From: an uncultured delta proteobacterium
Lineage (GTDB): Bacteria; Desulfobacterota; RBG-13-43-22
NCBI GenBank assembly: GCA_963743305.1
Contig: CAVUPH010000008.1
Coordinates: 32,001 to 96,000 of the forward strand
DNA: 64,000 nucleotides
Direction: 5' to 3'
Under the pieces are notes generated by a model. The model was not told the DNA's origin, did no database searches, and saw nothing but the letters and a program-made list of their open reading frames with translations. Made by a program: the position numbers and the translations under genes. Positions 24,870 to 59,515 of this stretch are shown piece by piece. Each line of letters starts with the position of its first letter. Positions within the stretch are counted from its first letter, which is position 1.

Positions 24870-24874
24870 CTAAA

Positions 24875-30812: not shown

Positions 30813-30822
30813 TTAAAAACTC

Positions 30823-33380: not shown

Positions 33381-33433
33381 AAATTTGAAAGCCCGGGTGA
33401 AGGGCTTATAAAGGGGCGAGAGTTTTTTACCTC

Positions 33434-34201: not shown

Positions 34202-34222
34202 GCGTGCGGACAGGAGGTCATC

Positions 34223-34448
34223 ATGCCCTTTATGTTCGGGGGCGGCGGGCGACAACGGGAAAGTAAAGGACAGAGGGTTCGGAAGCGGAAGAGGCCCTGG
34301 AGCCATCGGGCCGGGAGGGCCTTCTACGAATTGTATCTGTCCCCAATGCCGTCTTGTGGTTCCCCATAAGCCAGGTATCCCTTGTTTCCAAAGCCATTGC
34401 CCTCAGTGCGGATCAATTATGACCCGCCAATTTTTAATGGGTGAATAG
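34223..34448 (+). CDS. Second small Gly/Cys-rich protein, absent from the ORF track; one indel
   Basis: RBS aggagg and MPFMFGG. The shifted frame reads GFGSGRGPG..CICPQC..PHKPGIPC...CPQCG, paralogous to the 29005 gene. Confidence 0.7.
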
Positions 34449-35770: not shown

Positions 35771-35800
35771 GTCTCTGAGTCCCGGGTCAGGAGGGAAAAT

Positions 35801-35944
35801 ATGAGTGATTTTGCCGAAGATCTCCGCGATCTGGATATGATGCAGATCGCCACGCATCCCCTGCTCACTTCGGCGCCCACGGTGCATCCTTTAATCAATG
35901 CTGCGCACCAGGCTCTGGCAAAACTGAGGACGGTTACGAAGTGA
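35801..35944 (+). pseudogene. Relic: C-terminal tail of a pyridine nucleotide-disulfide oxidoreductase (NADH oxidase-like)
   Basis: 47-codon ORF with a strong RBS, reading MQIATHPLLTSAPTVHPLINAAHQALAKL. Confidence 0.5.
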
Positions 35945-35966
35945 TCTTCCGGATCGGAGCTGAACT

Positions 35967-36965
35967 ATTCAAACTTCAATAACCCGCTTACTTAAAATCC
36001 ATTATCCTCTTCTCCAGGGGGCCATGGCCTGGATTACCGGAGCGGATATGGCCGCCGCGGTCTGTGAGGCTGGAGGGTTGGGAACCATCGCGGCGGCCAC
36101 TTTTCAGCCTGAAGAGTTACGGAAGGAAATTAGCCGGCTTCGCCAGATAACCGCAAAGCCCTTTGCGGTCAACATCCCCCTCCGTCTGGCCTCCGCCAAG
36201 GAAGCCATCGAGGTGGTTTTCGAGGAAGAGGTGCCCGTTATCGTTTTCTCTGCCGGGGATCCACTTCCCTGGGTCCAGCGATTCAAAAAGGCCGGACGGA
36301 TCATTTTGCAGGTCGTCTTCAACCGGGAGATGGCCGAAAGGGCGGATCAGGCCGGGGTGGATGCCTTGATCGCCATGGGGGCCGAAGCCGGCGGTAATCT
36401 CTGTCCCGATGAAATAAGCACCCTGGTTTTGATACCGCTGGTGCAAGATAGTACCGATTTGCCGATAATAGCGGCCGGAGGAATCGCCGATGGCCGTGGT
36501 CTGGCCGCGGCCTTGGCCCTGGGGGCGGAGGCGGTTCAGTTAGGTACCCGGCTATTGGCTACCCGGGAAGCCACACTTCATCCTCATTATAAGCAGGCGG
36601 TTTTATCGGCCGGGGATACGGATACTACGGTCATCGGTCGTTTTACAGGACTGGAGTTTCGAGTTTTCAGGAATCAGCGGGTCCGGGAAATCCTGGCCTT
36701 AGAACGACAGGGGGTAGATAAGAAAAAGATCGACGACCTGACCATAGCCGCCCTTCGACTGGCCGTGGCCGAGGGAGACCTGGAAAAAGGGGCGCTGATG
36801 ATGGGACAGGGGGTGGCCCTCATCCACAAAGAAATGACCCTAGCCGATCTTTTCAGCCGGATTACGAAAGACGCGGAGAAACGTCTTCAGACATTGGCTT
36901 CGTTGACGGGAAAAGGAACCAGGAAAAAATCTTCATTCACCAGGGGGACCATTCCTTCCCCTTAA
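35967..36965 (+). CDS. Nitronate monooxygenase / FabK-like FMN enzyme
   Basis: ITRLLKIHYPLLQGAMAW, GGLGTI, PFAVNI, GAEAGG, IAAGGIADGRG and QLGTR. Confidence 0.88.
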   Translation: MQTSITRLLKIHYPLLQGAMAWITGADMAAAVCEAGGLGTIAAATFQPEELRKEISRLRQITAKPFAVNIPLRLASAKEAIEVVFEEEVPVIVFSAGDPLPWVQRFKKAGRIILQVVFNREMAERADQAGVDALIAMGAEAGGNLCPDEISTLVLIPLVQDSTDLPIIAAGGIADGRGLAAALALGAEAVQLGTRLLATREATLHPHYKQAVLSAGDTDTTVIGRFTGLEFRVFRNQRVREILALERQGVDKKKIDDLTIAALRLAVAEGDLEKGALMMGQGVALIHKEMTLADLFSRITKDAEKRLQTLASLTGKGTRKKSSFTRGTIPSP

Positions 36966-41965: not shown

Positions 41966-43327
41966 TCACTTTTTTCGGCTGCGGCCGTCCGTTTCCGGCA
42001 CCTCCAACTGCAAGGCCTTTATTTTTCGGTAGAGGGAGCTCACATCAATACCCAGCTCCCGGGCGGCCTGTTTCCGGTTTCCCGAACAACGCCATAAGGT
42101 TTCCAGGATGAGCCGCTTTTCCATGGCCTCCAGGCTCATCGGGCCGAAGGTTTCCCCGGTGGAATCAGCGGGCGGACGCATTTCAGGAGGCAGATGCGTC
42201 ATCTCGATCAACCCGCCGCGGCAGAGCACAAAAGCCTGCTCGATAATGTTTTCCAGTTCCCGGATATTGCCCGGATAATCATACTCCAACAGCCGGGCCA
42301 TGGCCTCCTGGGAAATCCCGGCAATCTGCTTTCCCTGCAGGCGGTTGAACTTGGCCACTAGATGATCCACCAGGAGCGGGATGTCTTCCCGCCGTTCCTT
42401 CAGGGGCGGCAGCTTCAGATGGATAACATGCAGGCGGTAATAGAGGTCCTCGCGAAACCGGCCGGCCTGAATGAGCCCGGTCAGGTCCTGATGGGTGGCG
42501 GCCACGACCCGGACATCCACCGGGACAGGTTCGAGACCCCCTAGAGGCTCAACCTGGCGTTCCTGGAGCACCCGCAGCAGGCGTACCTGCATGGCCGGCG
42601 AGATATCGCCGATTTCATCTAAGAACAGGGTCCCCCCGTTGGCCAGGACAAAGCGGCCCACCTTTTCCCGTTTGGCGTCGGTAAAGGCCCCGGCCTTGTG
42701 CCCAAACAGTTCGCTTTCCAGCAGGGTGTCCGGCAGGGCCGCGCAGTTCAAGGCCAGGAAACGCTTTTTCCGGCGGGGAGACTGGTTGTGAATAGCCTTG
42801 GCGAAAAGTTCTTTCCCGGTGCCGCTGGGGCCCTCAATCAGCACCGTACTGTTGCTTTCGGCAATCTGAGGGACCACCTCGAATAACTGCATCATGGCCG
42901 GACTTCGTCCGATGATGTCCTCAAACGAATGCCGGTTGAGCAATTCTTTTTGCAGCTCCTCGACCTGGCTGAGGTCCTGAAAAGTTTCCACTCCGCCGAT
43001 GACCTCTCCGGCGCTGTTTTCTAGAATGGCGGTGCCGATGCGGATCGGCACCCGTTGTCCCCGGTTGTTGATGATGCCGGCGGTGGCGTTAACGATCGGA
43101 TGGCCGGTGGTGAAGGTTCGCTTGAGGGCACAATCCTTTTCACAGATATCGGCGTGAAACACATCGGAACAGGAGCGGCCGAGGGCCTTCCTTCGGGACA
43201 CGCCGGTTATCCGTTCCGCGGCCCGGTTAAAAGCCGTAATTCGCCAGTCGGGACCAACCGTAAACACCCCTTCGTTGATGGAATCCAGGATAACGTCTCG
43301 TAGACCTATTTCCTCCTCCATTTTCAT
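41966..43327 (-). CDS. orpR: OrpR-like PAS sigma54 activator with a Cx8Cx3C Fe-S motif
   Basis: CSDVFHADICEKDC, GPSGTGKE, GAFTDA and an HTH. Divergent from a NifX-family gene, as in orp loci. Confidence 0.8.
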   Translation of the reverse strand: MKMEEEIGLRDVILDSINEGVFTVGPDWRITAFNRAAERITGVSRRKALGRSCSDVFHADICEKDCALKRTFTTGHPIVNATAGIINNRGQRVPIRIGTAILENSAGEVIGGVETFQDLSQVEELQKELLNRHSFEDIIGRSPAMMQLFEVVPQIAESNSTVLIEGPSGTGKELFAKAIHNQSPRRKKRFLALNCAALPDTLLESELFGHKAGAFTDAKREKVGRFVLANGGTLFLDEIGDISPAMQVRLLRVLQERQVEPLGGLEPVPVDVRVVAATHQDLTGLIQAGRFREDLYYRLHVIHLKLPPLKERREDIPLLVDHLVAKFNRLQGKQIAGISQEAMARLLEYDYPGNIRELENIIEQAFVLCRGGLIEMTHLPPEMRPPADSTGETFGPMSLEAMEKRLILETLWRCSGNRKQAARELGIDVSSLYRKIKALQLEVPETDGRSRKK

Positions 43328-44235: not shown

Positions 44236-44596
44236 ATGCCCAGAGGGGACAGGACAGGGCCCATGGGAATGGGGCCGATGACCGGCCGGGGAGGCGGGTA
44301 TTGCACCGGCTCCGGGAGGCCCGCATTTAATCAGGGAGGCTGGGGTAGCTTTTTCAGCAACGGCCCGGGTCTGGGTTCCGGCTGGGGAGGCGGCGGCCGA
44401 GGGTTATGCCGTTGGTTCTTCGGTGCCGGTCTGCCGGCCTGGAGGCGTTTCGCCGGTGGGGGTGCTTCCGTTCGAAGGATCGGATCCGGATTTGGAAAAA
44501 CGGTCGCTGAAAGGCCAGGCGGAAGCCTTGCAGTCCGAGTTGGACAGGATCAAAAAACGCATTCAGGAAATGGAATCCCGCCCCGCCTCCGAGTAA
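44236..44596 (+). CDS. DUF5320 family protein; indel near 44480
   Basis: MPRGDRTGPMGMGPMTGRGGGYC. The shifted frame gives the coiled coil LKGQAEALQSELDRIKKRIQEME to TAA at 44594. Confidence 0.8.
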
Positions 44597-44606
44597 ACCC
44601 GCTGCA

Positions 44607-44646
44607 AAAGGCGGCCCGTCTCCCGGTAGGGAGGCAGGCCGCCTTT
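44607..44646 (+). terminator. Intrinsic terminator-like hairpin
   Basis: aaaggcggcc-cgtctccc...gggaggca-ggccgccttt after the stop codon. Confidence 0.6.
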
Positions 44647-44793
44647 ATAAATTTTCCCTGGCGCCCGGAACGCCCCGGTTCCCGTCAGGCTGAACCCCTC
44701 AGAGAACCGTCAGCCGGACATTCCCTCGCTGGACGGCGTTTCGATTTGACACCCATGGCCAGGACCTCCGCGGTGTAGGAATTCCCCAGGATA

Positions 44794-46814: not shown

Positions 46815-48560
46815 TTGGAACGGCAATCCCCTGAGAAGCCGATAAACCCTCCGTTCGCCTTCAGCGGTGAAGCCATACTGGTCTTGGACCGCAACCTGAG
46901 GGTAATGGGTTTCAATGACCTGGCCCAGCGCCTTTTAAGGCCGGACTTCATGCCCGGAGAAGGGATCCATTTGGATCAGGTCTTCGAGGGCCCTTACCTG
47001 GCCAAGGTGTCAGCCGCTATCGACCAATCCTTGGGTAGGGGGGAAGGTTCCCATGGATTGGAGGCCCGAGCCCTGGATACTCAGGGGATGGTCTTTGATT
47101 GTCATTATTCCGTCAATCCCCTGATCGGGATCAATCATCAGGTAATCGGCGTCATCCTGACCATATTGGATGCCGACTACGCCCCCTTAACGGTTCAAAA
47201 CCGCCTGGACCCGTTGGCGGAACTTCCCCGAATGCCCCCCTTGAATTATGAAAGTCTCCTGGAACATTTGGCGGAAGGGATCTTCACTATCAACACCCGC
47301 TGGCGGATCACCTCCTTCAACCAGCCTGCCGAAAAAATCACCGGGTATAAGCGGAATGAAGTCCTGGGGCGGTATTGTTGGGATATCTTTCGCTCGGACG
47401 TCTGTAAGGGAGACTGTCCTTTACGGACGAGCCTGGAAAGCGGGATCACTCGCTTTGACCAGGATGTGCGTATGTTGGATAAGAGCGGGGCCAAACTTCC
47501 GGTTTTAGTCAACACCAACGTGGTTCGAGACCGAAGCGGAGGGGTTATCGGGGCGGTGGAGACCTTTCGCTTGATTACCCATCTGGAAGAATGCGTCAAC
47601 CTATCCCCGGCGCAATATTCTTTTTCAGCCATTATCGGACGAAGCCAGTCCATGCAGCGGTTTTTCCAGATCCTGCCGGATGTGGCGGCCAGCGATGCCA
47701 ATGTCTTGATCCAGGGAGAAAGCGGAACCGGCAAAGAATTGGTGGCTCGGGCTATCCACCACCACTCCCCTTTTCGGGAAGGGCCGTTCGTGGCCGTAAA
47801 TTGTTCGGCCCTGGCGGAGTCGCTGCTGGAATCCGAGCTCTTCGGACACGAAAAAGCGGCCTTTACAGGGGCCATTCGCTCCAAGGTGGGACGCTTTGAA
47901 CTGGCCCGCAGCGGAACCCTGTTCTTAGATGAGATCGGGGAATTGAAACCCGAACTGCAAGTCAAGCTCCTTCGAGTGCTGGAGCAACGGGTTTTTGAAC
48001 GAGTGGGCGGCAACCGACTGATTCCCATGCAGGCCAGGATTATCAGCGCCACCAACCGCGACCTAATCAAGGCCTTAGGGGATGGAAGTTTCCGGGAAGA
48101 CCTCTTCTATCGCCTCCGCACGGTCCCCATCACCCTACCGCCGCTCCGGGAAAGACCGGAAGATATTCCCTTACTGGTGGAGCATTTCCTTTCCCGCCTG
48201 AATAAAAAACATAAAAAAACCGTGCGGGGTCTGGATCCCAAATTGATGAGTCATTTTTTGGACTATTCCTGGCCTGGAAATGTGCGCGAACTGGAGCGGA
48301 TGCTGGAATACGCCTATATCTTTGTCAAAGGGCCGGTCATTTTCCCCAGCAATCTACCGGCCATGGAGGAATTGATGCGTGAACGTCTCCCAGAACCAGG
48401 ACAAGCCGGACACCCCCGGAGGAAAGCTAAAGACCTGGAGAAAGATCTCCTCCGCGAGGCCCTGGAGCGGGCCGGAGGGCGGCGATTGGAAGCGGCCACG
48501 ATCCTAGGAATAAGCCGGACTTCTCTCTGGAGAAAAATGAAATTACTGGATATTAATTGA
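46815..48560 (+). CDS. Dual-PAS sigma54 activator with a Cx8Cx3C motif
   Basis: [36 protein letters not shown] and an HTH. Confidence 0.92.
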
Positions 48561-48770
48561 TGTTTCACATTTGTTTCATTTGTTTCATTTTAGTTTCTTT
48601 TGCTATTTAATAATTATAATATTGATTTAATTAATAATTTTATTAAACTGCCTTAGCAGTATATCCCCCATTGAAACATTTATACTGGCCGCCTTTACTT
48701 AAAAAAATTGCCAAAATATTAATTTATTACATTAAATAAATAAGTTATATTATTAGGCATATCTATTGCA
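48561..48770 (+). promoter_or_regulatory. Sigma54 promoter with upstream TGTTTCA repeats
   Basis: AGGCATATCTATTGCA at 48755-48770, TGTTTCA at 48561, 48572 and 48581, an inverted TGAAACA at 48672, and an AT-rich spacer. Confidence 0.75.
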
Positions 48771-48825: not shown

Positions 48826-49290
48826 GTGAGTCGAGAACAAATCACAATTGATGATATCTTAGAGCGGTATCCCGGCCGGCCGGAGTATCTTATTTTTTTA
48901 CTCCAGGATATCCAAAGCGCTTACAACTACGTGTCTCCGGAGGCCCTCAACCTGGTTTGCGACCACGTGGGGGTTCCGTTAACCCAAGCCTATGCCGTCG
49001 CCACCTTTTATAAGTCTTTCAGTCTGGAGCCCAAAGGGGAGCACGAAATCAAGGTCTGTCTGGGAACGGCCTGCCATCTGAAAGGCGGCGAGCGGCTGAT
49101 CGAAGATTGGGAAAGGAAACTGAAGGTCAAGGCGGGAGAAACCACGCCGGACCTTAAATTCACCTTGGATTCCGTCAACTGTTTGGGCTGTTGTGCCCTG
49201 AGTCCGGTGATGGTGGTGGACGAGGAATACCATGCCAAGGCCAGTGCCAGTACCATCAACAAGATCCTCAAGAAATTTGCTAACGAATAA
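48826..49290 (+). CDS. NuoE/HydC-like [2Fe-2S] subunit
   Basis: VATFY, VCLGTACH and CLGCC. Confidence 0.93.
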   Translation: MSREQITIDDILERYPGRPEYLIFLLQDIQSAYNYVSPEALNLVCDHVGVPLTQAYAVATFYKSFSLEPKGEHEIKVCLGTACHLKGGERLIEDWERKLKVKAGETTPDLKFTLDSVNCLGCCALSPVMVVDEEYHAKASASTINKILKKFANE

Positions 49291-49309
49291 CGGAAAGAAG
49301 GAAGAGCCT

Positions 49310-51211
49310 ATGGAACAGGAAAATTTATTGACGGTCTTGGCGGCCCAACGTCTTCCGAATGCCGAAAAACTGAAAGACCTGCGGGTAACTTTTTTATCGG
49401 AAAAAGATCCCCAACAAAGGGAAGTTATTGTCTGTTACGGCACCGGTTGCCTGGCCGCCGGGGCGGCGAAGGTGGAACAGGCCTTTAAGAAGGTCTTAGC
49501 CAAGGGCGGGCTGAATATAAAAGTGAAGCCTTTGATCAAGGCCACCGGCTGCCGGGGATTTTGCTCTCGGGGGCCCCTGGTGGTGATCCAGCCGGAAGGG
49601 ATATTCTACCAAAAGGTAGGCGTTGAAGATGTGGAAGAGGTCATTGAGAAGACCCTGCGGGGAGGGGAAATCATCGAGCGGTTGACCTACCAGGACCCCC
49701 AGAGCGGTGAATTCATCCCGAAGGAAAAAGACATCCCCTTCTATCAACTCCAACATCGTTTGGTCTTGAGCCGCATCGGTTCCGTCGATCCCACCGATAT
49801 CCGGGATACGATTGCGGCCGGGGGCTATCAAGCGTTAGCCCGGGCACTGATGTCCATGACCCCGGAGGACGTGCTCAACCAAGTTGAAAAATCAGGACTG
49901 CGGGGACGGGGCGGGGCCGGCTTTCCCACCGGCCGCAAGTGGCGCAGTGCGCTGCGTGCCAAAGAAAAAAAGAATCAGCCGATTTATGTGGTTTGCAACG
50001 GCGACGAAGGGGACCCCGGGGCCTTTATGGACTGTATGGTCATGGAGGGGGACCCCCATGCCGTATTGGAAGGGATGATCTTAGGGGCCTATGCCCTGGG
50101 CTCCGGCCAAGGGTATATCTATGTCCGGGCCGAGTACCCTATCGCCATCAAACACTTGAACCTGGCTATGGATCAGGCCCGCGCCCTGGGGCTCCTGGGA
50201 GAAAATATCCTGGGCACGGACTTTTCCTTTGATATCCAGATCAACCGCGGTGCCGGGGCCTTTGTCTGCGGGGAATCCACGGCCCTTTTTGCCTCCCTGG
50301 AGGGCAAGGCCGGGGAACCGAAACCCAAGTATATCCGTTCCGTCGAGGAAGGTCTCTGGGGCCGTCCCACGGTTTTAAATAACGTCGAGTCCTGGGCCAA
50401 TATCCCGATGATCATTGCCCAGGGGGGGGACTGGTACGCCGGTCTGGGCGTTCCCCACAGTACGGGGACCAAAGTCTTCTCGCTGGTGGGCAAAGTCAAC
50501 AACGTGGGACTGGTGGAGGTCCCCATGGGGATCTCCCTTTCGAAAATCGTGGAGGAGATCGGGGGCGGGGTCCCCGGTGGAGAGCCCTTTAAGGCGGTTC
50601 AAACCGGCGGCCCTTCCGGAGGATGCATTCCTTATTCCCTGAAGGACGTGGCGGTGGACTACGATTCCCTGACCAAGGCGGGGTCTATGATGGGCTCCGG
50701 GGGGATGATTGTCATGGACCACCGGGATTGCGTGGTGGATATCGCCCGGTATTTTCTCCGGTTTCTGGAAGAAGAATCCTGCGGGAAATGCATGCCCTGC
50801 AGGCTGGGCCTGACCCGGATGCGGGAGATGCTCGATGCCTTTAGCCGGGGCCAGGGAACGGAGCAGGACCTGGAGGATTTGAACAGTCTGGCTCAGGCGA
50901 TCAAAGACGGCTCTCTCTGCGCCTTGGGGGGAAGCGCTCCCAATCCGGTTTTGACCACCATCCGCTATTTCCGGGACGAATACTTAGCCCATATTTTAGA
51001 AAAGCGCTGCCCGGCCGGGGTTTGCAAGGCCCTCATCACCTATGAGATCGACGGGGATAAATGCACCGGCTGTATGGCCTGTGCCCGCAATTGCCCGCAG
51101 GCCTGTATCTCCGGGGAAAAGAAGAAACCCCATGTCATCGATGCGTCTCGCTGCATCCGTTGCGGGGTTTGTCTGGAATCTTGCAAATTTGAAGCCGTAA
51201 AGGTTTTTTAG
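49310..51211 (+). CDS. NuoF/HydB-like NADH/FMN subunit with an N-terminal [2Fe-2S] and C-terminal ferredoxin
   Basis: GLRGRGGAGFPTG, DEGDPGAFMD, GAFVCGE, GGPSGG, ESCGKCMPCR and 2x[4Fe-4S]. Confidence 0.95.
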   Translation: MEQENLLTVLAAQRLPNAEKLKDLRVTFLSEKDPQQREVIVCYGTGCLAAGAAKVEQAFKKVLAKGGLNIKVKPLIKATGCRGFCSRGPLVVIQPEGIFYQKVGVEDVEEVIEKTLRGGEIIERLTYQDPQSGEFIPKEKDIPFYQLQHRLVLSRIGSVDPTDIRDTIAAGGYQALARALMSMTPEDVLNQVEKSGLRGRGGAGFPTGRKWRSALRAKEKKNQPIYVVCNGDEGDPGAFMDCMVMEGDPHAVLEGMILGAYALGSGQGYIYVRAEYPIAIKHLNLAMDQARALGLLGENILGTDFSFDIQINRGAGAFVCGESTALFASLEGKAGEPKPKYIRSVEEGLWGRPTVLNNVESWANIPMIIAQGGDWYAGLGVPHSTGTKVFSLVGKVNNVGLVEVPMGISLSKIVEEIGGGVPGGEPFKAVQTGGPSGGCIPYSLKDVAVDYDSLTKAGSMMGSGGMIVMDHRDCVVDIARYFLRFLEEESCGKCMPCRLGLTRMREMLDAFSRGQGTEQDLEDLNSLAQAIKDGSLCALGGSAPNPVLTTIRYFRDEYLAHILEKRCPAGVCKALITYEIDGDKCTGCMACARNCPQACISGEKKKPHVIDASRCIRCGVCLESCKFEAVKVF

Positions 51212-51229
51212 TTAAAGGAGGTCCGCGCA

Positions 51230-51847
51230 ATGATACCCTTTAAAATAAATGAACAGGATGTGGAGGCCCAGGAAGGCTGGACGATTCTGGAGACGGCCAA
51301 ACAGTACGGCATCCACATTCCGACCCTCTGCTACCACGAGTCCGTCGCCCCCAGCGGGGCCTGTCGCCTGTGTGTAGTGGAAATTCGGGAAGGCGACTGG
51401 TCCAAGATCGTTATTTCCTGCATGTATCCGGTGCAATCCGGGTTAACGGTCTTGACCGATAGTGAACGGGTCCGTAATGTCCGCCGCTGGATTCTGGAAA
51501 TGCTGCTGGCCGAATGCCCGGCCAGCAAGGAACTGCAAAAATTGGCCGCCGAATATGGCGTCACGGAGACCCGCTTTACCATCAAAAACCCGAAGGAGGA
51601 ATGCATGTTGTGCGGTTTGTGCGCTCGAGTCTGCCGGGAGGTAGTCGGGGTCTCGGCCATCACCACTATCGGCCGGGGGGTCCACAAAAAGATCGGCGCG
51701 CCCTACGGGAGACCTTCCGAATCTTGCGTGGCCTGCGGGTCCTGTGTCAGCGTCTGTCCCACTGGAGCGATGCGCACCCGCATAGACAGTATACGCGGCC
51801 TGGGTCAAGCCAAAACCGGCCATTCCCACCAGGCTAAGGAGGTATGA
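51230..51847 (+). CDS. NuoG N-terminal/HoxU-like Fe-S subunit with no catalytic domain
   Basis: IPTLC, GACRLC, SC, CMLCGLC..C and CVACGSCVSVCP. Confidence 0.92.
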   Translation: MIPFKINEQDVEAQEGWTILETAKQYGIHIPTLCYHESVAPSGACRLCVVEIREGDWSKIVISCMYPVQSGLTVLTDSERVRNVRRWILEMLLAECPASKELQKLAAEYGVTETRFTIKNPKEECMLCGLCARVCREVVGVSAITTIGRGVHKKIGAPYGRPSESCVACGSCVSVCPTGAMRTRIDSIRGLGQAKTGHSHQAKEV

Positions 51848-51850
51848 GGT

Positions 51851-54274
51851 ATGGAAAATAGAAAAAAAATCGGCGTTTTTCTCTGTCAGTGTGACGGCCG
51901 GATCGATCCCTGGGTAGACCTATCCTGGCTGAAAAAGGAGTTGGAAGAGGACCCGACCATCGCCCAAATGGAGATTCTTCCTCTGTCCTGCAGCTTACCG
52001 GGTTTAACCCATATCAAAACCCTTATCCAGGAAAATGGCCTGAACCGCATCCTGATCGCCGGTTGTGAGACCCGAATTCTCTTGAAAAAATTCTACCGGG
52101 AATTGGAGGAGGTGGGCATCCTGGAGGGGCAGATCGACATGGTCAACCTGAGAGATCATGTGTCCGCCGTGCATAATCTCCAGCCCCAGGAGATGGCGGC
52201 CAAGGGGGCCAAGCTTATTCGGGCTTCGGTAGCCGGGTTGGCCGCCCTGGAGCCGACGGTTTCCGAAAGAGTGGAATTCGTCGGGCCGGTGATGCTCTTG
52301 GGGGGAGGGATCGCCACTTATTCGGCGGCCCAGGAACTCCTCCGAAAAAATATCGACTGCATCCTGGCGGTCGCGACCGACGAATATGAAGATGAAATCC
52401 GCATGCTCCATGAGCACTATCCCGGCGAACGTCATTATTACGAACGCCTCCGGAAGATCATGGCCGAGGTCGACGAAAGCCCCCTGGTGCGCAGGATCAC
52501 GGTGGGAGAACTCCAGAGTGTCCGAGGAAGGACCGGTCATTACACGGTAACCTTTTCCACCCTGGAGGACGGGCCGCCTAAGGTCCACGAGGTGGGGGCG
52601 ATCATCGCCTGCCTGGATGGACAGATGTTGAACCAGGGGTCCAACTTCGGCCATGACGGCAAGACGGTGATCTGCCATACCGAAACCGAAGAATTGATCT
52701 GGACTCACGGGGTCCCCGGCGGAAAGATCGTTTTCTGGATTAACGATTATGAATCCCGAACGCCCCAGTTTGCCTATCTTTCTTCTCGCTGCGCCTGGTC
52801 CATTGCCCGCTACATGGTGGAGAACCGGAAAGATGTGGAAATTACCTTCATGTACAACAACCAGATGGATATACCCCTTTCCGCCGAGGAACGTCAAATT
52901 GCCCGCAAATATAAGATCAAGTGGATTCCCTATGATGGGGCCCTGCGCCCTACGGTTCAAGCGGGATATATCACCTATTGCGATCCTCGGGATCATGTCG
53001 AGTATGAAATGGCCTGGGACAAGTTGATCCTTTCCCCCCGTCGCTCGGTTGGCATTGAAGCCACCCGGGTTGCCCGGATCCTGGGTCTGGAAGGCGAGGA
53101 AGGCAAGTTCCTGGAAGTCAAAGGAGAGAAAGTCCGCCCGGAACAGGTGGGCCGGGATGAGCTCTTCCTGGCCGGCAGCGCCCGCCTCCCTTGTGATCTC
53201 CATGAGGCCCTACGGCAGGGCCGCCGGGCGGCGGTTAAGACCGCGGAACTGGTGGAAAGGGCCCGGGCCGGGACCCTCTACGCGCCCCGAATGGTCTGTT
53301 CGGTGGACCAGGCCCTCTGCACCGGCTGCGGTCTTTGCAAGGAAATCTGCCATTGCGGAGGGATCGAGCCGGTTGAAGGACTGGGGGGAGGAATTCCCCG
53401 TCATGTGGATCCCATGGTTTGTACCGGGGGTGGGACCTGTGCCGCTGCCTGCCCCACTCATGCCCTGATCCTGCAGAATAATACCACCCTGCAACGGGAA
53501 GCACAGGTGACCGCTCTGGCCAACAGCTTGGTCGAAGGAGAGGTTATGGGCTACGGTTGTGTCTGGGGAGGGCTGGCCGCCGCAGATCACGCCGGCCTCA
53601 AGGGGCTGACCTATGATCCCCGCCTCTACCTGTTACGGGTGGGCTGTATCGGCCAATTGGATCCCGCGGTCATGGCCCGGGCCTTTATGGAGGGGGCCAA
53701 TGGCTTAATTTTGATCGGCTGCCCCCCGGACGACTGCCACCATTCCTATGGTCTGGACCATACCTGGAGCCGGGTTAATTTGATGAAAAAGCTGTTGGAG
53801 TTCTGCGGGCTGGACCGCCGGCGCATCGCCCTTGGTCATGTAGACCTCAATCAGCCGGAGCAGTACGTCATCATGGCCGAGAGCTTCATTAAATTGATTA
53901 ATGAACTGGGCCCCATCGAACGGTCCCCGGAGGTGCAGGAAAGGCTGAGGGGTCTCTATGCCACGGTAAACAATTCCCGGGTTCGCTGGGTTCTGGGAGC
54001 CACGCTTCGGCGACCCTGGGAAGAGGTTTATCCGGGCAACCAGCGCAATGCCTTATCCTTTGACAAGGACCTCCTGGGGATCCTGAAGGAAGAATGGATG
54101 AAGGCCCGAATTTCCAATCTGCTCAGGTCCGATAAACGCTATTTTGATCTGAAGGAGCTCAGTCAAAACCTGAAGGCCAAACAAGAAGATATCATGAGCG
54201 GCCTGCAGGAGATGGTCAAAGAAGGGGTGGTCAGCCGGGTACACAAGGAAGGCGTCGCTCACTATAGCCTTTAA
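51851..54274 (+). CDS. Degenerate HdrA fused to ferredoxin, MvhD and a C-terminal winged helix (BamE/BamF-like fusion)
   Basis: IGVFLCQC, VNLRD, LLGGGIAT, CTGCGLC/CTGGGTC, GCVWGG, RVGCIG, GCPPDDCHH, and a tail LKELSQNL...LQEMVKEGVV. Confidence 0.85.
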   Translation: MENRKKIGVFLCQCDGRIDPWVDLSWLKKELEEDPTIAQMEILPLSCSLPGLTHIKTLIQENGLNRILIAGCETRILLKKFYRELEEVGILEGQIDMVNLRDHVSAVHNLQPQEMAAKGAKLIRASVAGLAALEPTVSERVEFVGPVMLLGGGIATYSAAQELLRKNIDCILAVATDEYEDEIRMLHEHYPGERHYYERLRKIMAEVDESPLVRRITVGELQSVRGRTGHYTVTFSTLEDGPPKVHEVGAIIACLDGQMLNQGSNFGHDGKTVICHTETEELIWTHGVPGGKIVFWINDYESRTPQFAYLSSRCAWSIARYMVENRKDVEITFMYNNQMDIPLSAEERQIARKYKIKWIPYDGALRPTVQAGYITYCDPRDHVEYEMAWDKLILSPRRSVGIEATRVARILGLEGEEGKFLEVKGEKVRPEQVGRDELFLAGSARLPCDLHEALRQGRRAAVKTAELVERARAGTLYAPRMVCSVDQALCTGCGLCKEICHCGGIEPVEGLGGGIPRHVDPMVCTGGGTCAAACPTHALILQNNTTLQREAQVTALANSLVEGEVMGYGCVWGGLAAADHAGLKGLTYDPRLYLLRVGCIGQLDPAVMARAFMEGANGLILIGCPPDDCHHSYGLDHTWSRVNLMKKLLEFCGLDRRRIALGHVDLNQPEQYVIMAESFIKLINELGPIERSPEVQERLRGLYATVNNSRVRWVLGATLRRPWEEVYPGNQRNALSFDKDLLGILKEEWMKARISNLLRSDKRYFDLKELSQNLKAKQEDIMSGLQEMVKEGVVSRVHKEGVAHYSL

Positions 54275-54335: not shown

Positions 54336-55187
54336 TTAACCGGCCCAGTCGACGGCGGCGCGCATCTTTTTGTCGATAACCAGGATCACGTGTTGTTCTT
54401 TTCGGTAGGCGGAAAGATAGGCCCGAACCGAAATGCTCATCGTGACCAATCCGGTCAGAATCAGAAGCCCATCCATCACGGTCCAGAGCCCCATTCCAAA
54501 ATAGCGTATTAAGGCCAACCCCAGGGCGATCAGGGCTAAACCGGTGCGCATAAAGGCCAGAAGCGTTCTTTCTTTGGCCAAGATGGTCCGATGGGAGGAC
54601 AGATAGGTACGGAGGTCGGCCAGGGTATTTCTTCCGAAGGCCAGTTCAGTCCTGCGGTTGGACAAATGAGTGCGTTGTTCCGCCAGATTGGTTCGTTGCT
54701 CTGCCAGACCGGTTCGATTATCCGCCAGGTCGGTCCTCCTGGCAGCCAGATCCGTACGCCGGTTGGCCAAGCCGGTCCGCTCTTGGGCGAGTTCGGTGCT
54801 TTTGAATGACAGCCGGGTCTGCTCGCGCATCAGCCCGGTACGGGTATCGGCCATATCCGTACGTTTTTCTGCCGACTGGGTACGCAGATCGGAATTCCGG
54901 ACCAATTGTTTGTTCAACTCGGTGCGCTCTCGGGCCAGTTCGGTTCGGGCCCCCGAGTCTTCCACTAAATGGGTGGTGAGGGTGTTGCGCTTTCGGGCTA
55001 GCGTGGTCCTTTCTTCTTCGAGTTTGTTACCCTTTTCGGCCAACTGCAGAAGTCCATCCAGGACCTCCTTCTCTTCATCGGCAAACCGCAGGAGGCCGTC
55101 CAGGACCTCCTTCTCTTCTCCTAAAATCGCCAGGATCTGTTTTAAGAAGACCGGCCTTTTCCCCTCAATTCCGGGTTCAATGTCCAT
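54336..55187 (-). CDS. DUF202 (YidH-like) membrane protein with a long RTxLAxx heptad array
   Basis: About 20 RT-x-L-A heptads, then LAKERTLLAFMRTG and 2 TM helices. Confidence 0.8.
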   Translation of the reverse strand: MDIEPGIEGKRPVFLKQILAILGEEKEVLDGLLRFADEEKEVLDGLLQLAEKGNKLEEERTTLARKRNTLTTHLVEDSGARTELARERTELNKQLVRNSDLRTQSAEKRTDMADTRTGLMREQTRLSFKSTELAQERTGLANRRTDLAARRTDLADNRTGLAEQRTNLAEQRTHLSNRRTELAFGRNTLADLRTYLSSHRTILAKERTLLAFMRTGLALIALGLALIRYFGMGLWTVMDGLLILTGLVTMSISVRAYLSAYRKEQHVILVIDKKMRAAVDWAG

Positions 55188-55212
55188 CGGATTATCCTCT
55201 CTAGGCTATTGG

Positions 55213-56049
55213 TTATTCCAAGGCTACCGGAATGTCTTCAAGGCCGATCTGGACTTTTTTAACGCCCGGGACCTGTTGCGCCACGACGGTCAGGTCGTTC
55301 TTGATCCGTTTTTTCCCACTGGGGAAAATCCCGCCGGTCTCAAAGCTCCCGCTGATCTTGATAATCCCCTTTTCAGCGAGTACCTCCAATTCCAACCCCT
55401 TGGTATAGTCATGGGCAGCCAGCGCGTGCTTCACCCGGCTGGCCAAGACAAAATCTTCAATGATCGCCGCTGAATCCGGCGACTCGACAAACTCTTTTTG
55501 GTTTAGGGCACACTCGAGAATTCCGCAGGCCCCCTCAATCGTTATGGCATCCAGATTAATGACCAGATCATAGAGCGTCGGGTCCCGCCAGTCTACTTCG
55601 TATAAAAAGCGGGTCCACTTGATCCGGCTCTCGTCCATTTTTTCGATGGTTTTCAGGGCTTCTTCAAAGGTGATTTTTTGCGTCTCGGCCAGTTTCTGGG
55701 CTCTGGGCTTCAGAGGGGCGATCACCCGGACTTTCAGGACTTGGGGCAGTTTTTTTAACAAAAGATGCCCCGCATGTCCATAGTAGATGAACGGACCCTT
55801 TTGAGCCCTTTCAGCCAGGGCCAATTGAATAGCGGTAAGATAACAGCGCCGCTCGGGGGAAGAGCCGTGGACCAATCCTTTGGTTCTTTCCAGTTGCTGC
55901 AGAAGATGAGATTGGGAGATCCCGGATCGTCTGGAAGCCTCCTCGAGGATTTCCTGGCTGACGGCCGGAAACCCCAGTTTTTCGGAAAGACATTTCGCCA
56001 GGGACTCCCCGCCGCTCATAGTGCCCCTGGAAATGGTGATGATGGCCAT
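55213..56049 (-). CDS. Cytidylate-kinase-like protein with a C-terminal BON-like domain
   Basis: IITISRGTMSGG, LKVRVIAP and YDLVIN, then VAQQVPGVKKV. Confidence 0.85.
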   Translation of the reverse strand: MAIITISRGTMSGGESLAKCLSEKLGFPAVSQEILEEASRRSGISQSHLLQQLERTKGLVHGSSPERRCYLTAIQLALAERAQKGPFIYYGHAGHLLLKKLPQVLKVRVIAPLKPRAQKLAETQKITFEEALKTIEKMDESRIKWTRFLYEVDWRDPTLYDLVINLDAITIEGACGILECALNQKEFVESPDSAAIIEDFVLASRVKHALAAHDYTKGLELEVLAEKGIIKISGSFETGGIFPSGKKRIKNDLTVVAQQVPGVKKVQIGLEDIPVALE

Positions 56050-56126
56050 TTTTCCTCCTTTGGTACAAATATAATCCCGGAGACCTTCTTACCCCGAAGT
56101 CCGTTTATTGAACTGGGGACCTCGCC

Positions 56127-56495
56127 TCACCGGTTGAGAGCCTTGACCACCAAATCCCGCAACTGAGAAAGTTTAAAGGGTTTGGCGATAAAGTCATAGG
56201 CCCCTATTTTTAGGGCTTCTTTAGCCTTTTCGACCGTGGCGAAACCCGTAATGATAATCACCTGGGTTTCCGGGGAAACCTGTTTAACCCGTTTCAAGAT
56301 TTCAATGCCGTCCAATTCCTTCATTTTAAGATCGGTGATCAAAACCTGAAATTTCTTTTCGGAAAATCGCCGGAGGGCTTCCAGAGGGTCGGTAAAAGTT
56401 TCGAGATCGAGATTCACCTTCTCCAGGGTGGACCGCAGGCGTTCGCAGACGATCGGTTCGTCATCCAGGATCATAACGCTGGGAATGGGTTCCAT
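56127..56495 (-). CDS. Stand-alone response regulator
   Basis: LDDEP, TDLKM, ITGFA and AKPF. Confidence 0.92.
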   Translation of the reverse strand: MEPIPSVMILDDEPIVCERLRSTLEKVNLDLETFTDPLEALRRFSEKKFQVLITDLKMKELDGIEILKRVKQVSPETQVIIITGFATVEKAKEALKIGAYDFIAKPFKLSQLRDLVVKALNR

Positions 56496-56523
56496 GGGAC
56501 CTCCGCTCCGGAGCCGGCAGGAA

Positions 56524-56895
56524 TTACTTGAATTTTTTAGCCGCCTTCTCCACCAGTTTAACGATCTGCTCCAGCTTAAAAGGTTTGGTGACAAATTGGG
56601 CGTTCAGATATTCGGCTTCCCGGGCGCTTTCAATCGTCGCGTATCCGGTAATGACAATGGCTTCGGTATCCCGTTTCCGGTCTTTGAGAAACCGCAGGAC
56701 ATCAATGCCGGTAGGCCCGCTCATTTTCAGATCGGTTACCAGGACCTGAAAATGCTTCTCCTCCAGCCGGTTGATCGCCTGCCGACTGTCGGTAAAAACT
56801 TCCACCTGAAAGCCCTCCTTTTCCAAGACCGGCCGGAGCCGCTCCCCGACGATCGGTTCATCGTCCAGGACCATGACAGCAATATCACTTTTCAT
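56524..56895 (-). CDS. Stand-alone response regulator
   Basis: LDDEP, TDLKM, ITGYA and TKPF. Confidence 0.92.
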   Translation of the reverse strand: MKSDIAVMVLDDEPIVGERLRPVLEKEGFQVEVFTDSRQAINRLEEKHFQVLVTDLKMSGPTGIDVLRFLKDRKRDTEAIVITGYATIESAREAEYLNAQFVTKPFKLEQIVKLVEKAAKKFK

Positions 56896-56945
56896 TGGAA
56901 CCTCCTTCCCCTTTAAGGACCTTTCCCCAATCGAAAAAACCATCT

Positions 56946-59515
56946 TCAATCGGTCTGGAGATGGGCTTTCGCCTCCCCCTCAAAGAACTGGTTGGTAAAA
57001 AAATCGATATCTTGATCCGTCCGCAATAAGATGTCCAGTTGCCGGGTGTAGCCGATTAATCGTCCCAGCATACGAAATTTGTTTTCCATATTCGGGCGGT
57101 CCATCTTTTTAATACGGCCGATGATCAAGTCCGCTTTGCTTTCCACGGCAAAATCATTTTTTTCCAAAATCTGAGCCAACACCCTGACCCGTCGGCTCCG
57201 GCGGGTGAATTCGGTGACGCCGCCGAAGAATCGAAAATAGAGGTAGTTGCTGTTGCGGTCGTCGGAAAGGTAGCCGTCCACCATATTAAAATGGTACCCC
57301 AGACCTAAATTTAGATTGATATATTCTTTGGAGACAATGGCTAGATTCACATTCGAGCTATCGGCGGCCAGCGCCTGGGTGGAAAGGTTGCTGGTAAAGC
57401 TGGAAATGAAGCCCTTCAGGTCCAAATCCACCGGTTGGGACTGCCAGACCCCCGGCGCGATCAAAGCCCGGAGCAGGATGGACAAAGGTTCGCAGGCGAT
57501 CTCTTCCAGGGAGATTTCGTTGGAAGAAAGGCCCGTTCGGATCCCCCCCCCGATGTCCAGGATGGTCAGGTCCAAGGGGACGGACAACTTCACTTTAGTC
57601 AACGAATGCGTAAAACCCAACTGGCTGGGGTGTATGCCCTGGGCGATCCTCCGGACCGCCATTTCATGGGAAAACCGGATGATGTCGTGAAACGTTTTAC
57701 AGTGGGCCGAATCAAAATCAGTGGATTGGGGATCGGTCACGTTCAGGATGGAAACCTTTTTTAATAAGCGCCGCAGCAATTTGAATTCATAGGTTTCTTC
57801 ATAGGGGAGGCGATCGATCAACTGGGCGGTCAGGAGTTCTTTGACGATCCCCTGATAGATCACATTCTCTTCGGCATCCACCGTCACTTCCATTCCGGAT
57901 TTCAGGACCTCCGTAGCCAAGGCGGTATCCACGATGGTCGGCACCCGGAATTCCCGACAAATGGTGGCCATGTGACCGGTGACGGCCCCGATATCGGTCA
58001 CCACCGCACTGGCGGCGGGAACCAGTTTGGATAGGCGGGGCGAAGTATGTTTCAAGACCAGCACCGCGCCGCGGGGAAAATGTCGGCTGTCCTCTTCGGA
58101 CTGCACTTGGAAAACGGTCCCGGCCCCGATACCCCGGCTGGCGATCACCCCCCGGTCTTTTAGCAATATCGGATATTGCTGGGCGGCGGTAATGAGCCGG
58201 TTTTTATCCAATTTCAATTTCCCGGTAAATTGGAGCGGCCGGGCCTGGAGGTAGGTGACTTGGCCCTGGGTATCGATGGCCCATTCGATGTCCTGGAAGG
58301 ATTTCATGTATTGTTCAATCCGGACGGCCCCGGCCAGAACTTCGCGCATCCGGGATTCATCCAGACAGGGGACCTCCTGCTTTTCCGGAAGGACCGGAAC
58401 CAGGGCGATCCCCCCGGCTTCAGTCCAGCCATATTGTTTACTTTTACGGCCGATGCGCTGCCACAGAACCGGATAAGGTGGATTTTTGGAAACTTTATAT
58501 TGATCCACTTCTCCCTCCCCGTCCACCACCAATTTTCCCAATCCCCAGGCAGCCGCCAGGATCATTTCGTTTCCTTCAAAGCCATTGGGATCTGCGGTGT
58601 AGACCACCCCGCTGACCTGAGGAGAGAGCATGGACAGGCAACCGACGGCCATAGCCATTTCCTGCTGCCGGCTCCCCCGCTGCAGGCGATACTGGATCAC
58701 CGGGGGAGCAAACAGACTGGCCACTACCTGTTTGTAGCCGGCCTCGATTTGCGCCGAGGGAACATTTAAAACCGTGGTATACTGGCCGGCATAGCTGATT
58801 TGGCTGTCTTCCCCGACCGCGCTGCTGCGCACCGCCCAGTGCTTCACCGGGAGGGCTTCCCGGGAAGAAAGTTCTTTCCGGATGGCCTTCCTGATTTCCG
58901 AGGGGACCTTGGCCCGCAGGATCCGTTCCCGCAGTTCCCGGGCCTTTTCCTCCATGACCTCCGGTTGTAACTTTCCTTCTCCCAGGGGGGCCACCAGGGA
59001 TTCCAACTGGTTGGCTTCGATAAATTGCTTGAACGCATAGGTGGAAATCACAAAACCTTCCGGAACCCGCAAACCCAAACGGTTCCGGAGTTCCCCAGGG
59101 AAGCCATTTTTTCCCCGGCAAAATCGGACATTTCTTTGGTCAGTTCCCGCAGCGGATAAACGTAGTCTCCTTTGGGAATGGTGAAGCGGGAGTCCAGCTC
59201 GCCTTGAATTTCTATTTTAGCCTTTTCGAAAACGGTGAACAGCTCCAGGTACTTTTGGGGAGTGATTAAATTGAGATTGTAGACGACTTTATAGACTGCC
59301 TCCTCCAACTCGGCGATCACGGTCTCAATATACTGCTTGTCGAACAGATAATCGCCGCCTAGTTTTTCCCCCATATCGGCCATCAGGTCCAATGCCCGGT
59401 TGTTGTAATCCAACAGTTCCCGGAAGCTTTGGAACAGAAACTGCAGGCTTAGTCCTTCCTGGTTTTTTTTTCGTCGGAAAAAGGATTTGACGGAATCCAG
59501 CATCATGTACGGCAC
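56946..59515 (-). CDS. PEP-synthase-like protein: ATP-grasp domain, swivelling His domain and an unknown C-terminal domain; indel near 59090
   Basis: GEKMASLG, VPEGF, AVRSSAVGED, GLGKLVVDG, QDIEWA, LQARP and TGHMATICREF. No PEP-binding TIM barrel. Confidence 0.85.

Follow-up and report, generated by a model that had tools for sequence, protein, structure and literature searches.

Positions 48826-54274 of the 64,000-nucleotide stretch analyzed here, a part of contig CAVUPH010000008.1 from an uncultured delta proteobacterium (the window), hold four close-packed open reading frames (ORFs) on the forward strand: a NuoE-like gene, a HydB-type NuoF-like gene, a gene for the N-terminal piece of a NuoG and a gene for an 807-residue fusion of HdrA-like, ferredoxin, MvhD and winged-helix parts. 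This four-gene operon, conserved among relatives of sulfate reducers, is the core of a five-gene cassette that includes its own PAS-domain sigma-54 activator. Judged by homology, the operon appears to combine counterparts of BamG, BamH and BamI with a fused counterpart of BamF and the second half of BamE, and so to represent the input half of a class II benzoyl-CoA reductase (Bam) without the output half. The best reading of the cassette, held at a probability of about 45%, is a portable, sigma-54-controlled input module for reduced nicotinamide adenine dinucleotide (NADH) and ferredoxin that feeds an output partner differing between lineages. An earlier note, made from the sequence of this DNA without database searches, had already proposed a stand-alone adaptor for a complex encoded elsewhere. 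The best reading shares that proposal, still as an unproven one, and parts from it over the docking target then suggested, a MetF-HdrA-MvhD-MetVF cluster in the same window, which finds no support.

The composition given in the earlier note is confirmed by the ORF listing and the domain searches (Table 1). The genes follow one another with gaps of 19, 18 and 3 nucleotides when the second is counted from 49310; its ORF opens at 49232, and 49310 is the probable start because homologues align from residue 27. The first ORF also matches the HoxE/NuoE models of NCBIfam, below their cut-offs. The second contains the Pfam domains 2Fe-2S_thioredx (PF01257, residues 56-140), Complex1_51K (PF01512), SLBB and NADH_4Fe-4S (PF10589), with a Fer4 match at residues 605-656. 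An N-terminal thioredoxin-like [2Fe-2S] domain, a flavin mononucleotide (FMN)/NAD(H) domain, a [4Fe-4S] domain and a C-terminal 2x[4Fe-4S] domain make up the full HydB-type feature set, and the glycine-rich motifs are present, including the DEGDPGAFMD and GGPSGG that had been reported from the sequence. The NuoG piece would bind one [2Fe-2S] and two [4Fe-4S] clusters, the same cofactor set as BamI, and its cysteines are invariant in an alignment of 18 homologues. Both the NuoE-like [2Fe-2S] subunit and the NuoG-like feeder subunit of a Bfu/HydBC-type core are therefore in place. A third-substrate module, whether a catalytic domain or a catalytic subunit, is found neither in the operon nor as a conserved neighbor of the 27 cassettes with examined flanks. 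Among the flanking ORFs that were scanned, up to about 5 kb from the window's operon in both directions, there is no gene for a hydrogenase, a formate dehydrogenase, HdrBC/D or a tungsten enzyme of the AOR family, in agreement with the earlier note.

The fusion protein combines a recognizable scaffold with a strongly altered center. Pfam finds Fer4 and FlpD (MvhD) domains, the latter (PF02662) at 105 bits against a cut-off of 22.3, and neither Pyr_redox nor any other flavin domain. The NCBIfam models for HdrA and HdrA2 match residues 3-235 and 374-690, respectively, both far under the cut-off (289 vs. 1100 bits). The AlphaFold2 model, built on 140 aligned sequences, has a mean predicted local distance difference test score of 91.8 and a predicted template modeling (TM) score of 0.85. 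Its top PDB matches are the HdrA chains of 5ODC, 8RVY and 7BKD (E ~1e-29 to 1e-27, TM score at most 0.69 by target), followed by the HdrA-like protein of a sulfur oxidizer (6TJR) and then by thioredoxin reductases. The overall fold is thus shared with methanogen HdrA (PDB 5ODC, 7BKB, 8RVY; TM 0.69 by target), and the order of an N-terminal cysteine domain, a C-terminal ferredoxin and MvhD in one chain is that of HdrA2 (NF040770). The last 75 residues are modeled as helix-helix-helix-beta-hairpin, a winged helix, so that the predicted MvhD plus winged-helix C-terminus is borne out. Across 33 family members, cysteines 12, 14, 47 and 72, nine cysteines of the ferredoxin domain, MvhD cysteines 570, 599, 624 and 629 and a basic linker motif are all invariant. 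Homologues of only 36-38% identity still retain every Fe-S ligand as well as the linker motif and the winged helix.

The remodeling of the HdrA-like core is best seen from profile alignments, in which family positions 8-241 correspond to HdrA 3-236 and positions 313-546 to HdrA 402-636. No counterpart exists in these alignments for HdrA 237-401, the stretch that holds the inserted ferredoxin domain and the cluster-cysteine segment beside the flavin. The CxGxRD/CSxxCC motif is absent, the 'CC' of HdrA being aligned to residues other than cysteine, and the TFPTxDCxxC pair is missing in the window's subfamily. Neither alignment of the fusion protein shows a conserved lysine at HdrA K409 (alignment numbering), which we take to be the lysine at flavin N5: the hidden Markov model (HMM) alignment places Ser317 there, an Asn in most members, and the BLAST alignment, shifted by three residues, places a poorly conserved R320. 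In the HMM alignment with HdrA the strand-2 acidic residue, a GG doublet and this lysine are all substituted in the window's subfamily. Unlike HdrA, the window's system thus lacks the inserted ferredoxin, the CxGxRD/CSxxCC cluster, the TFPTxDCxxC pair, the lysine at flavin N5 and HdrBC. Since its HdrA-like domain is without both known exits, the complex should not be able to finish a reaction by the known HdrA routes.

The description of this core as degenerate holds for the lost cluster motif and for the presence of GGGIAT in place of a canonical dinucleotide motif, but the latter is better regarded as a lineage state than as random decay, because the last position of GGGxx(G/A/S/T) varies across subfamilies and one of them, linked to FrhB, has the canonical GGGISG. 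Besides GGGIAT the window's core holds a conserved (Y/F)PG, A315-W316 and C448-D449; every subfamily keeps GxGxx(G/A/S/T), (Y/F)PG, A315-W316 and, within the C-terminal flavin motif, Cys448 and Asp449. Polar motifs such as HEHYPGERHY and LDGQMLNQG..GHDG, together with C275, are invariant in the window's subfamily and are not kept in the others, so that they do not constitute a universal active site. Position 573, in the MvhD domain, is an invariant Gly in the window-family alignment and G or S in other subfamilies; its counterpart in the BamF-like protein of the same genome is a probable selenocysteine (in-frame TGA).

The likeness to BamE/F/G/H/I that had been noted from the sequence is substantiated by direct comparison with the genome's own Bam-type proteins. 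In the BamE-like protein, the second HdrA unit (residues 341-887) matches fusion residues 6-545 collinearly, at 25% identity (E 2e-41). That unit likewise lacks the inserted ferredoxin domain, and keeps the cluster cysteines. Residues 564-794 align with BamF-like proteins, which carry Pfam FlpD and ArsR-type helix-turn-helix (HTH) domains, over 224 columns at a probability of 99.3% (hhalign with the family profile, E 1e-20); this alignment spans the MvhD domain, the linker and the winged helix. As far as the accessible part of a preprint on the Geobacter enzyme describes it (cryo-electron microscopy; bioRxiv 10.64898/2026.04.10.717634), NADH and reduced ferredoxin enter by confurcation at BamGH, which is of HydBC type, BamI delivers electrons to the C-terminal ferredoxin domain of BamE, and the [2Fe-2S] of BamF relays them to the bifurcating flavin. 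There the winged helix of BamF contacts BamI within a metabolic enzyme, the second thioredoxin reductase (TrxR) domain of BamE holds a non-bifurcating flavin and has a mainly structural role, and a BamGHI subcomplex was made in Escherichia coli. Because the BamF-type winged helix docks onto BamI in class II benzoyl-CoA reductase, that of the fusion protein is probably a docking element of the same type and is unlikely to bind DNA; a view of it as a regulatory addition finds no support.

Set against Bam of Geobacter metallireducens, insofar as the accessible text of that preprint describes it, the window's NuoE, NuoF and NuoG piece share the cofactor pattern of BamG/H/I, the fusion carries the MvhD-type adaptor, linker and winged helix of BamF, and its HdrA unit, with a C-terminal ferredoxin domain and no inserted one, resembles the second half of BamE. 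In contrast to Bam, neither the operon nor its flanks contain the tungsten AOR-type BamB, BamC or the HdrD-like BamD, which lie elsewhere in the genome. BamE is a fused HdrA dimer with one bifurcating unit, whereas the window has a single HdrA unit fused to the BamF part; this unit also lacks the [4Fe-4S] cluster beside the flavin, and has Gly in place of the Sec/Cys beside the BamF [2Fe-2S]. Moreover, the cassette has its own sigma-54 activator and occurs also in genomes without a BamB-like gene.

The genome that contains the window (4.9 Mb in 43 contigs, 90% complete) possesses a complete bam-like cluster outside it, on the minus strand of contig 33 (L027, 58000-77999). The order is an AOR-family gene in two pieces, a 183-residue ORF, an HdrD-like CCG protein, a 914-residue permuted fused HdrA, an MvhD plus winged-HTH gene with an in-frame TGA (probably selenocysteine), a NuoE-like gene, a NuoF-like gene in two ORFs and a 204-residue NuoG piece. 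The assembly may contain frameshift errors here, to judge by the broken AOR and NuoF genes. The AOR matches only the generic family in NCBIfam, and the cluster is called bam-like by gene content and order since NCBIfam has no BamB-specific model. It continues with two BcrAD/BadFG-type ATPases.

Conservation of the cassette was followed in 33 distinct cassettes (19 loci on genome contigs, another 12 loci with 13 cassettes between them, and the window; none duplicates another). The order NuoE, NuoF, NuoG piece, fusion is constant in all of them, even where the fusions share 36-38% identity. A protein search scored 7999 sequences and returned 967 relatives of the fusion at E <= 0.001, hundreds of them close and of about 805-825 residues, from metagenomes and metagenome-assembled genomes; among the matches listed (the best 120 of 967) identity is 56-88%, and the source labels are Desulfarculaceae, Desulfobacteraceae or Thermodesulfobacteriota. 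Among the full-length representatives of a library clustered at 50% identity, no more than four lie at 40-55%, and beyond them come generic HdrA-MvhD fusions at 31% or less, a drop which marks the fusion family as a discrete clade. The maximum-likelihood tree of the NuoF core (45 rows) places the 28 cassette copies on one side of a branch with an ultrafast bootstrap of 98 and an SH-like approximate likelihood ratio test value of 99. On the other side stand 17 paralogues, 16 from five other cassette-bearing genomes and the second copy of the window's genome; the genome's own Bam-type NuoF, split into two ORFs, was left out. One locus (L029, 3117-19396) has two complete cassettes in tandem, each with an activator and with fusions 37 and 49% identical to that of the window, and the whole unit including its regulator has therefore been duplicated.

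The regulator, too, belongs to the unit. The four genes named in the earlier note stand, but the activator and the promoter region in front of them had been overlooked. An orthologue of the activator adjoins nuoE in all 25 cassettes with upstream DNA (11 of 11 in a first set, 13 of 13 in a second, and the window), in divergent orientation in one of the second set. Its second PAS region contains a C-W-x-[IV]-F-x4-C-x3-C motif that is kept in the window's protein and in 24 of 24 cassette-linked matches, and which suggests a redox or metal signal. The same three-cysteine motif occurs in eight of nine other sigma-54 activators matched in related loci and could be the signature of a larger group of PAS activators in the phylum that sense thiols, metals or Fe-S; a paralogue of the activator lies in the window at 41966-43327 on the minus strand.

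Between the activator and nuoE, three or four direct (T/C)GTTTCA repeats stand downstream of the activator stop codon in each of the eight intergenic regions inspected, and an inverted TGAAACA copy is matched farther downstream in seven of the eight (exception, L039). The repeats are likely the upstream activator site of the enhancer-binding protein, a putative assignment made from the sequence pattern. The -24/-12 element of the window has two mismatches and is not significant there on its own, as the sigma-54 pattern is not enriched over the window (18 matches vs. a mean of 23 in shuffled sequences). The promoter assignment therefore rests on the comparison between cassettes, an element with at least 9 of 11 consensus positions being found upstream of nuoE in 24 of 25. 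With both an adjacent enhancer-binding protein and a candidate -24/-12 element present, the operon is predicted to be sigma-54 dependent.

The distribution of the fusion gene (E <= 1e-100) and of BamB-like genes (E <= 1e-150 to the gene of the window's genome) was compared over 401 sampled genomes of the phylum. The fusion gene is present in 33, concentrated in four families (10/13, 3/4, 5/12 and 9/12), with two copies in several genomes. BamB-like genes occur in 119, and 100 of these lack the fusion gene. Conversely, 19 of the 33 fusion-bearing genomes have a BamB-like gene and 14 do not, 12 of the 14 being at least 95% complete; one family has the fusion gene in 5 of 12 genomes and a BamB-like gene in none. 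These disagreeing distributions, together with the complete bam-like cluster of the window's own genome, lead to rejection of the operon as a supplier of BamBCD, a partnership for which the earlier note had asked for a co-occurrence survey. The proposed docking onto the MetF-HdrA-MvhD-MetVF complex fares no better: MetV (PF12225) is present in 322 of the 401 genomes against 33 for the fusion, so that its co-occurrence is uninformative, and the cluster already has a fused HdrA dimer and MvhD of its own. That cluster (metF, fused HdrA, mvhD, metV, metF) lies at 17148-23227 of the window; its HdrA part (18123-21168) resembles BamE in being a permuted double HdrA, and its coding sequence is split over three or more frames in the assembly. 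Reading TGA as selenocysteine did not restore a single frame in 18123-21168, which was analyzed in pieces.

Inspection of the flanks of 27 cassettes turned up no conserved neighboring gene, so the earlier statement that a catalytic partner is lacking stands, and homologous operons do not regularly include a known catalytic subunit. Eight of the 27, the window's not among them, have a redox gene of Hdr or Frh type at a distance of up to about 7 kb. The most divergent subfamily (L030, L033 and L035) has an FrhB/FdhB-family gene directly after the fusion gene; the FrhB-like protein bears an N-terminal ferredoxin-like cysteine region, and the fusions of these loci keep a canonical GxGxxG and a cysteine pair in a 'TFPGC..C' segment. 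HdrC/HdrB-like proteins, or proteins of NarI-Fer4 and CCG type (including HdrD/E-type), are encoded near the cassettes of L011, L039 and L040, BamE-like fused HdrA genes near those of L030 (two) and L040, and HdrA-like genes near those of L025 and L026 (the L026 copy detected by tblastn). In two genomes of one genus (L069+L040 and L071+L039), a radical-SAM gene, a gene for a NarI-like membrane protein with two ferredoxin domains and a gene for a CCG (HdrB/D-like) protein stand directly upstream of the activator on the same strand, one genome also having a 936-residue BamE-like fused HdrA. This group could possibly form a membrane-linked output module. The single FrhB-like gene of the window's genome was considered as a partner and rejected as too distant (25-28% identity) from the cassette-linked ones.

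Within the input-module reading, the operon would encode a soluble module in which NADH and ferredoxin meet at the HydBC-type NuoE/NuoF core, with its FMN and flanking clusters, in a confurcation or in the reverse direction as a bifurcation. The NuoG piece, with its three clusters, would then conduct electrons to the fusion protein, where they would reach the C-terminal ferredoxin domain, proceed to the MvhD-type [2Fe-2S] and probably end at the flavin of the HdrA-like domain. The BamF-type winged helix would clamp the fusion protein onto the NuoG piece, with no DNA binding expected. From here the electrons would be handed to an output partner encoded outside the cassette, one that differs between lineages, and expression would be under sigma-54 control through the adjacent PAS activator. 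The gene set, domains, cofactor ligands, homologies, conservation of cassette and promoter and independence from BamB on which this scheme is built are observed; the electron path, the docking by the winged helix, the occupancy of the flavin site and the hand-over to a partner are what we infer from them.

Several observations weigh against such a module. In 19 of the 27 cassettes no Hdr- or Frh-type gene is nearby, and no partner was found in the window's genome, where the distant FrhB-like gene is the only one of its kind. Its dedicated regulator, the tandem copy in L029 and the presence of two copies in several genomes give the cassette the look of an autonomous unit. The fusion is also the fastest-diverging component (36-94% identity vs. 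51-96% for NuoF in tblastn comparisons), which would fit a substrate-specific catalytic subunit as well, and the kept GxGxx(G/A/S/T), Asp449 and invariant Cys448 may indicate a working flavin site that acts on a small molecule. The same observations, with (Y/F)PG and A315-W316 retained in every subfamily, speak for the main rival, a complete Bfu-type oxidoreductase whose third redox site is the remodeled HdrA-like flavin with Cys448; residues 135-480 also resemble flavin adenine dinucleotide (FAD)-dependent oxidoreductases in language-model features (score 0.92-0.93), which serves as a lead only. Loss of the inserted ferredoxin and the cluster would have laid the flavin open to a small molecule or a protein disulfide, which the enzyme would reduce or oxidize in a reaction coupled to NAD(H) and ferredoxin. 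Such an enzyme is a serious candidate, though a less probable one than the input module. Pfam recognizes no flavin domain in the protein, the strand-2 acidic residue, GG doublet and N5 lysine are replaced in the window's subfamily, and the invariant polar residues (HEHYPGERHY, LDGQMLNQG..GHDG, C275) are limited to that subfamily. The nearest relative of the domain is, moreover, the BamE unit called structural in the accessible part of the Geobacter preprint (10.64898/2026.04.10.717634), and one subfamily adds an FrhB-like flavo-Fe-S protein in cis, which would be odd if the site were already complete. A more specific version, in which the remodeled domain is a new reaction center and the cassette a complete, undescribed member of the Bfu family, is rated slightly lower again and is on balance unlikely. 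Here the flavin and Cys448 might act on a disulfide, on a persulfide or on some other acceptor of two electrons near -400 mV; a HydBC-type confurcation would be wired through a BamF-type adaptor to a single-cysteine flavin site, and the redox-sensing Cys-motif PAS activator would act as the switch.

The remaining explanations carry far less weight than an input module with an external partner. A plain NADH:ferredoxin (or NADH:Fe-S) oxidoreductase for redox balancing, with no third substrate and with the fusion as scaffold and electron buffer, would draw on the NuoE/NuoF core, which has every HydB-type feature for NAD(H) and ferredoxin, on the Cys-motif PAS, which hints at a redox rather than a substrate signal, and on the genes for universal stress proteins, kinases and response regulators found downstream in 7 of the 13 flanks of the first set. 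This is improbable, since NADH cannot reduce ferredoxin without a coupled exergonic half-reaction, as the accessible text of Schut et al. (2022, PMC9304861) has it, and about seven further Fe-S clusters kept down to 36% identity are hard to explain as a buffer. The signaling genes of the neighborhood, the winged helix and the ever-adjacent activator could instead point to a redox sensor, a complex that reads the NADH/ferredoxin state and signals to the sigma-54 activator or nearby kinases, or whose winged helix binds DNA. Against this stand the homology of winged helix and linker to those of BamF, whose contact is with BamI in the described portion of the Bam structure (10.64898/2026.04.10.717634), the putative recognition helix (helix 3), which is among the least conserved parts, the absence of downstream kinase genes from the window and many other loci, and the cost of more than ten Fe-S clusters for a sensor; a sensor is accordingly judged less probable still. 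The smallest chance of all, a very slight one, is left to the idea that the genes are missing or spare electron-input subunits of the genome's own BamBCD. The architecture is like that of BamE-I, and in the window's own family all 11 cassette-bearing genomes also have a BamB-like gene. The contig 33 cluster, however, already includes genes like those for BamE, BamF (with an in-frame TGA), BamG, BamH and BamI, the cassette NuoF copies form a clade of their own, and the counts given above (14 of 33 fusion-bearing genomes without a BamB-like gene, 100 of 119 in the other direction) do not fit.

Pieces of the cassette are already in print. Within the Bfu/HydABC family as covered by the accessible text of Schut et al. 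(2022, PMC9304861), the window shares the BfuB-like N-terminal [2Fe-2S], FMN, [4Fe-4S] and C-terminal 2x[4Fe-4S] domains, the BfuC-like [2Fe-2S] subunit and a short BfuA-like three-cluster subunit of the kind seen in the Bam/Wor/F420-type clade. In contrast to the types described there, it has no third-substrate module (hydrogenase, Fdh, Nfn, Por, Codh, Wor, Bam, F420, Rub, Mbh or Nuo). Its sole added subunit is the degenerate HdrA-MvhD fusion, and none of the Bfu types listed in that text includes such a protein. The same kind of gene string appears as the 'nuoEFGmvhD' transcription unit of Desulfotignum phosphitoxidans (PMC4046663), for which NADH-dependent ferredoxin reduction was suggested; in the accessible part of that report the unit is listed by name, without domain analysis, regulator or distribution, and the likeness is one of gene names alone. 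A 2026 paper on Desulfatiglans-related metagenome-assembled genomes mentions, in its accessible part, NuoEFG and HdrABC-MvhD complexes. Full-text literature searches returned no functional study of the cassette; an earlier description may exist in supplements or in a 2021 review of HdrA modules. The Bfu family, 'nuoEFGmvhD' and the Bam structure are thus published, and the stand-alone cassette with a degenerate HdrA-MvhD fusion is not among the listed Bfu types. In two giant fusions among the distant homologues (P0152 and P0150), an NAD(P)H-binding input module comes after an HdrA unit, a ferredoxin domain, MvhD and an extension. Their input is a fused GltD/NfnB-like flavoprotein rather than a NuoEFG set, and their HdrA keeps recognizable Pyr_redox signatures (24-28% identity to the window's fusion). 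In the architecture of these HdrA-MvhD-GltD/NfnB fusions it is seen that MvhD-type adaptors link input modules to HdrA.

Two-stage bifurcation from a HydBC-type to an HdrA-type site has so far been shown, in the literature surveyed, only in the one-megadalton class II benzoyl-CoA reductase. The cassette presents the input half of such a machine free-standing and with its own regulator, and some of its carriers lack a BamB-like gene. Were it to serve different outputs, sulfate reducers and syntrophs would have in it a general source of power for low-potential chemistry, and an input module of this kind would explain how 'orphan' Hdr-like complexes are fed with NADH and ferredoxin. If the cassette is instead a complete enzyme, the Bfu family would gain a new third substrate. 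In either case a small, four-subunit system offers a practical handle on electron transfer between the MvhD-type [2Fe-2S] and the flavin of HdrA.

Table 1. Positions of the operon, its control region, the domains of the fusion protein and linked FrhB-type genes (window coordinates unless a locus is named).
Feature	Position	Strand	Basis
Sigma-54 enhancer-binding protein, 581 residues: two PAS regions, AAA+ sigma-54 interaction domain, Fis-type HTH	46815-48560	+	Pfam, NCBIfam
Three direct TGTTTCA repeats	48561-48567, 48572-48578, 48581-48587	+	comparison of intergenic regions
Inverted copy TGAAACA	48672-48678	+	~77 nucleotides upstream of the -24/-12 element
Sigma-54-type -24/-12 promoter-like element, AGGCAT-N5-TTGCA	48755-48770	+	71 nucleotides before the start codon
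Four ORFs of the operon	48826-49290, 49232-51211, 51230-51847, 51851-54274	+	ORF listing
NuoE/HydC/BamG-like [2Fe-2S] subunit, 154 residues	48826-49290	+	Pfam PF01257 (2Fe-2S_thioredx), E 3e-49
NuoF/HydB/BamH-like subunit	49310-51211	+	Pfam, NCBIfam, motifs, homologue alignment
NuoG N-terminal/HoxU/BamI-like subunit, 205 residues	51230-51847	+	Pfam Fer2_4 and two Fer4
Fusion residues 1-130, HdrA N-terminal domain, four invariant Cys (12, 14, 47, 72)	51851-52240	+	alignments
Fusion residues 134-480, remodeled thioredoxin-reductase-like (HdrA core) domain	52250-53290	+	alignments, structure matches
Fusion residues 481-550, C-terminal ferredoxin domain, 2x[4Fe-4S]	53291-53500	+	Pfam Fer4/Fer4_7, invariant Cys
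Fusion residues 565-689, MvhD/FlpD [2Fe-2S] domain	53543-53917	+	Pfam, alignments
Fusion C-terminal part with winged helix	53918-54271	+	AlphaFold2 secondary structure, hhalign against BamF-like proteins, subfamily conservation
G+C-rich hairpin downstream of the stop codon	54291-54323	+	-31.7 kcal/mol, z -1.78 vs. shuffles
FrhB/FdhB-family gene after the fusion gene, 365-388 residues	L030 7505-8611, L033 6725-7891, L035 8368-9465	same as fusion gene	

The closing hairpin of the earlier note exists, but it is only weakly better than shuffled sequences, has no T-run after it and is not among the predictions of a terminator scan, and a convergent gene ending at 54336 delimits the operon equally well. 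That gene opens a minus-strand group (54336-59078) encoding a DUF202 protein, a cytidylate-kinase-like protein, a response regulator and a PEP-utilizing (PPDK_N) enzyme; this is a lineage-specific context, since it is common only to L009 (83-96% identity) and to no other locus. As for expression, the NuoF-like, NuoG-like and fusion genes are matched by short contigs from three wetland metatranscriptome libraries (~110-260 nucleotides; 1-3 differences in several). They give a weak hint that close relatives of the operon are transcribed, these being contigs only, with DNA carry-over possible; stretches that no contig covers carry no information. None of the sequencing runs searched contains half or more of the stretch's sampled words.

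Other parts of the window and contig bear features of separate interest. About 8 kb past the window end, on the same contig (L028; contig 8, 104393-112498), lies a third NuoE/NuoF/NuoG-piece set of the genome, flanked by genes for a PhsA-like molybdopterin oxidoreductase (601 bits vs. a cut-off of 694), a Fer4_11 protein and a GltD/NfnB-like flavoprotein; it looks like a different Bfu-type complex, one with catalytic parts. Within the window, 29559-36965 and 44236-44778 encode a ParA/NUBPL-NifX fusion, two MinD-type ATPases with ferredoxin inserts, NifU_N and DUF364/DUF4213 proteins, a cation-efflux-NifX fusion, an NMO-family protein and a DUF5320 protein. Members of this set recur near the cassettes of L009, L020, L026, L031, L032 and L036, and may point to shared cofactor maturation. 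Truncated or split-looking genes at 6593-7660, 11661-12263 and 24353-27965 (a sigma-54 activator without HTH, a 200-residue PurH-like piece and histidine-kinase fragments) are consistent with frame errors elsewhere in the assembly.

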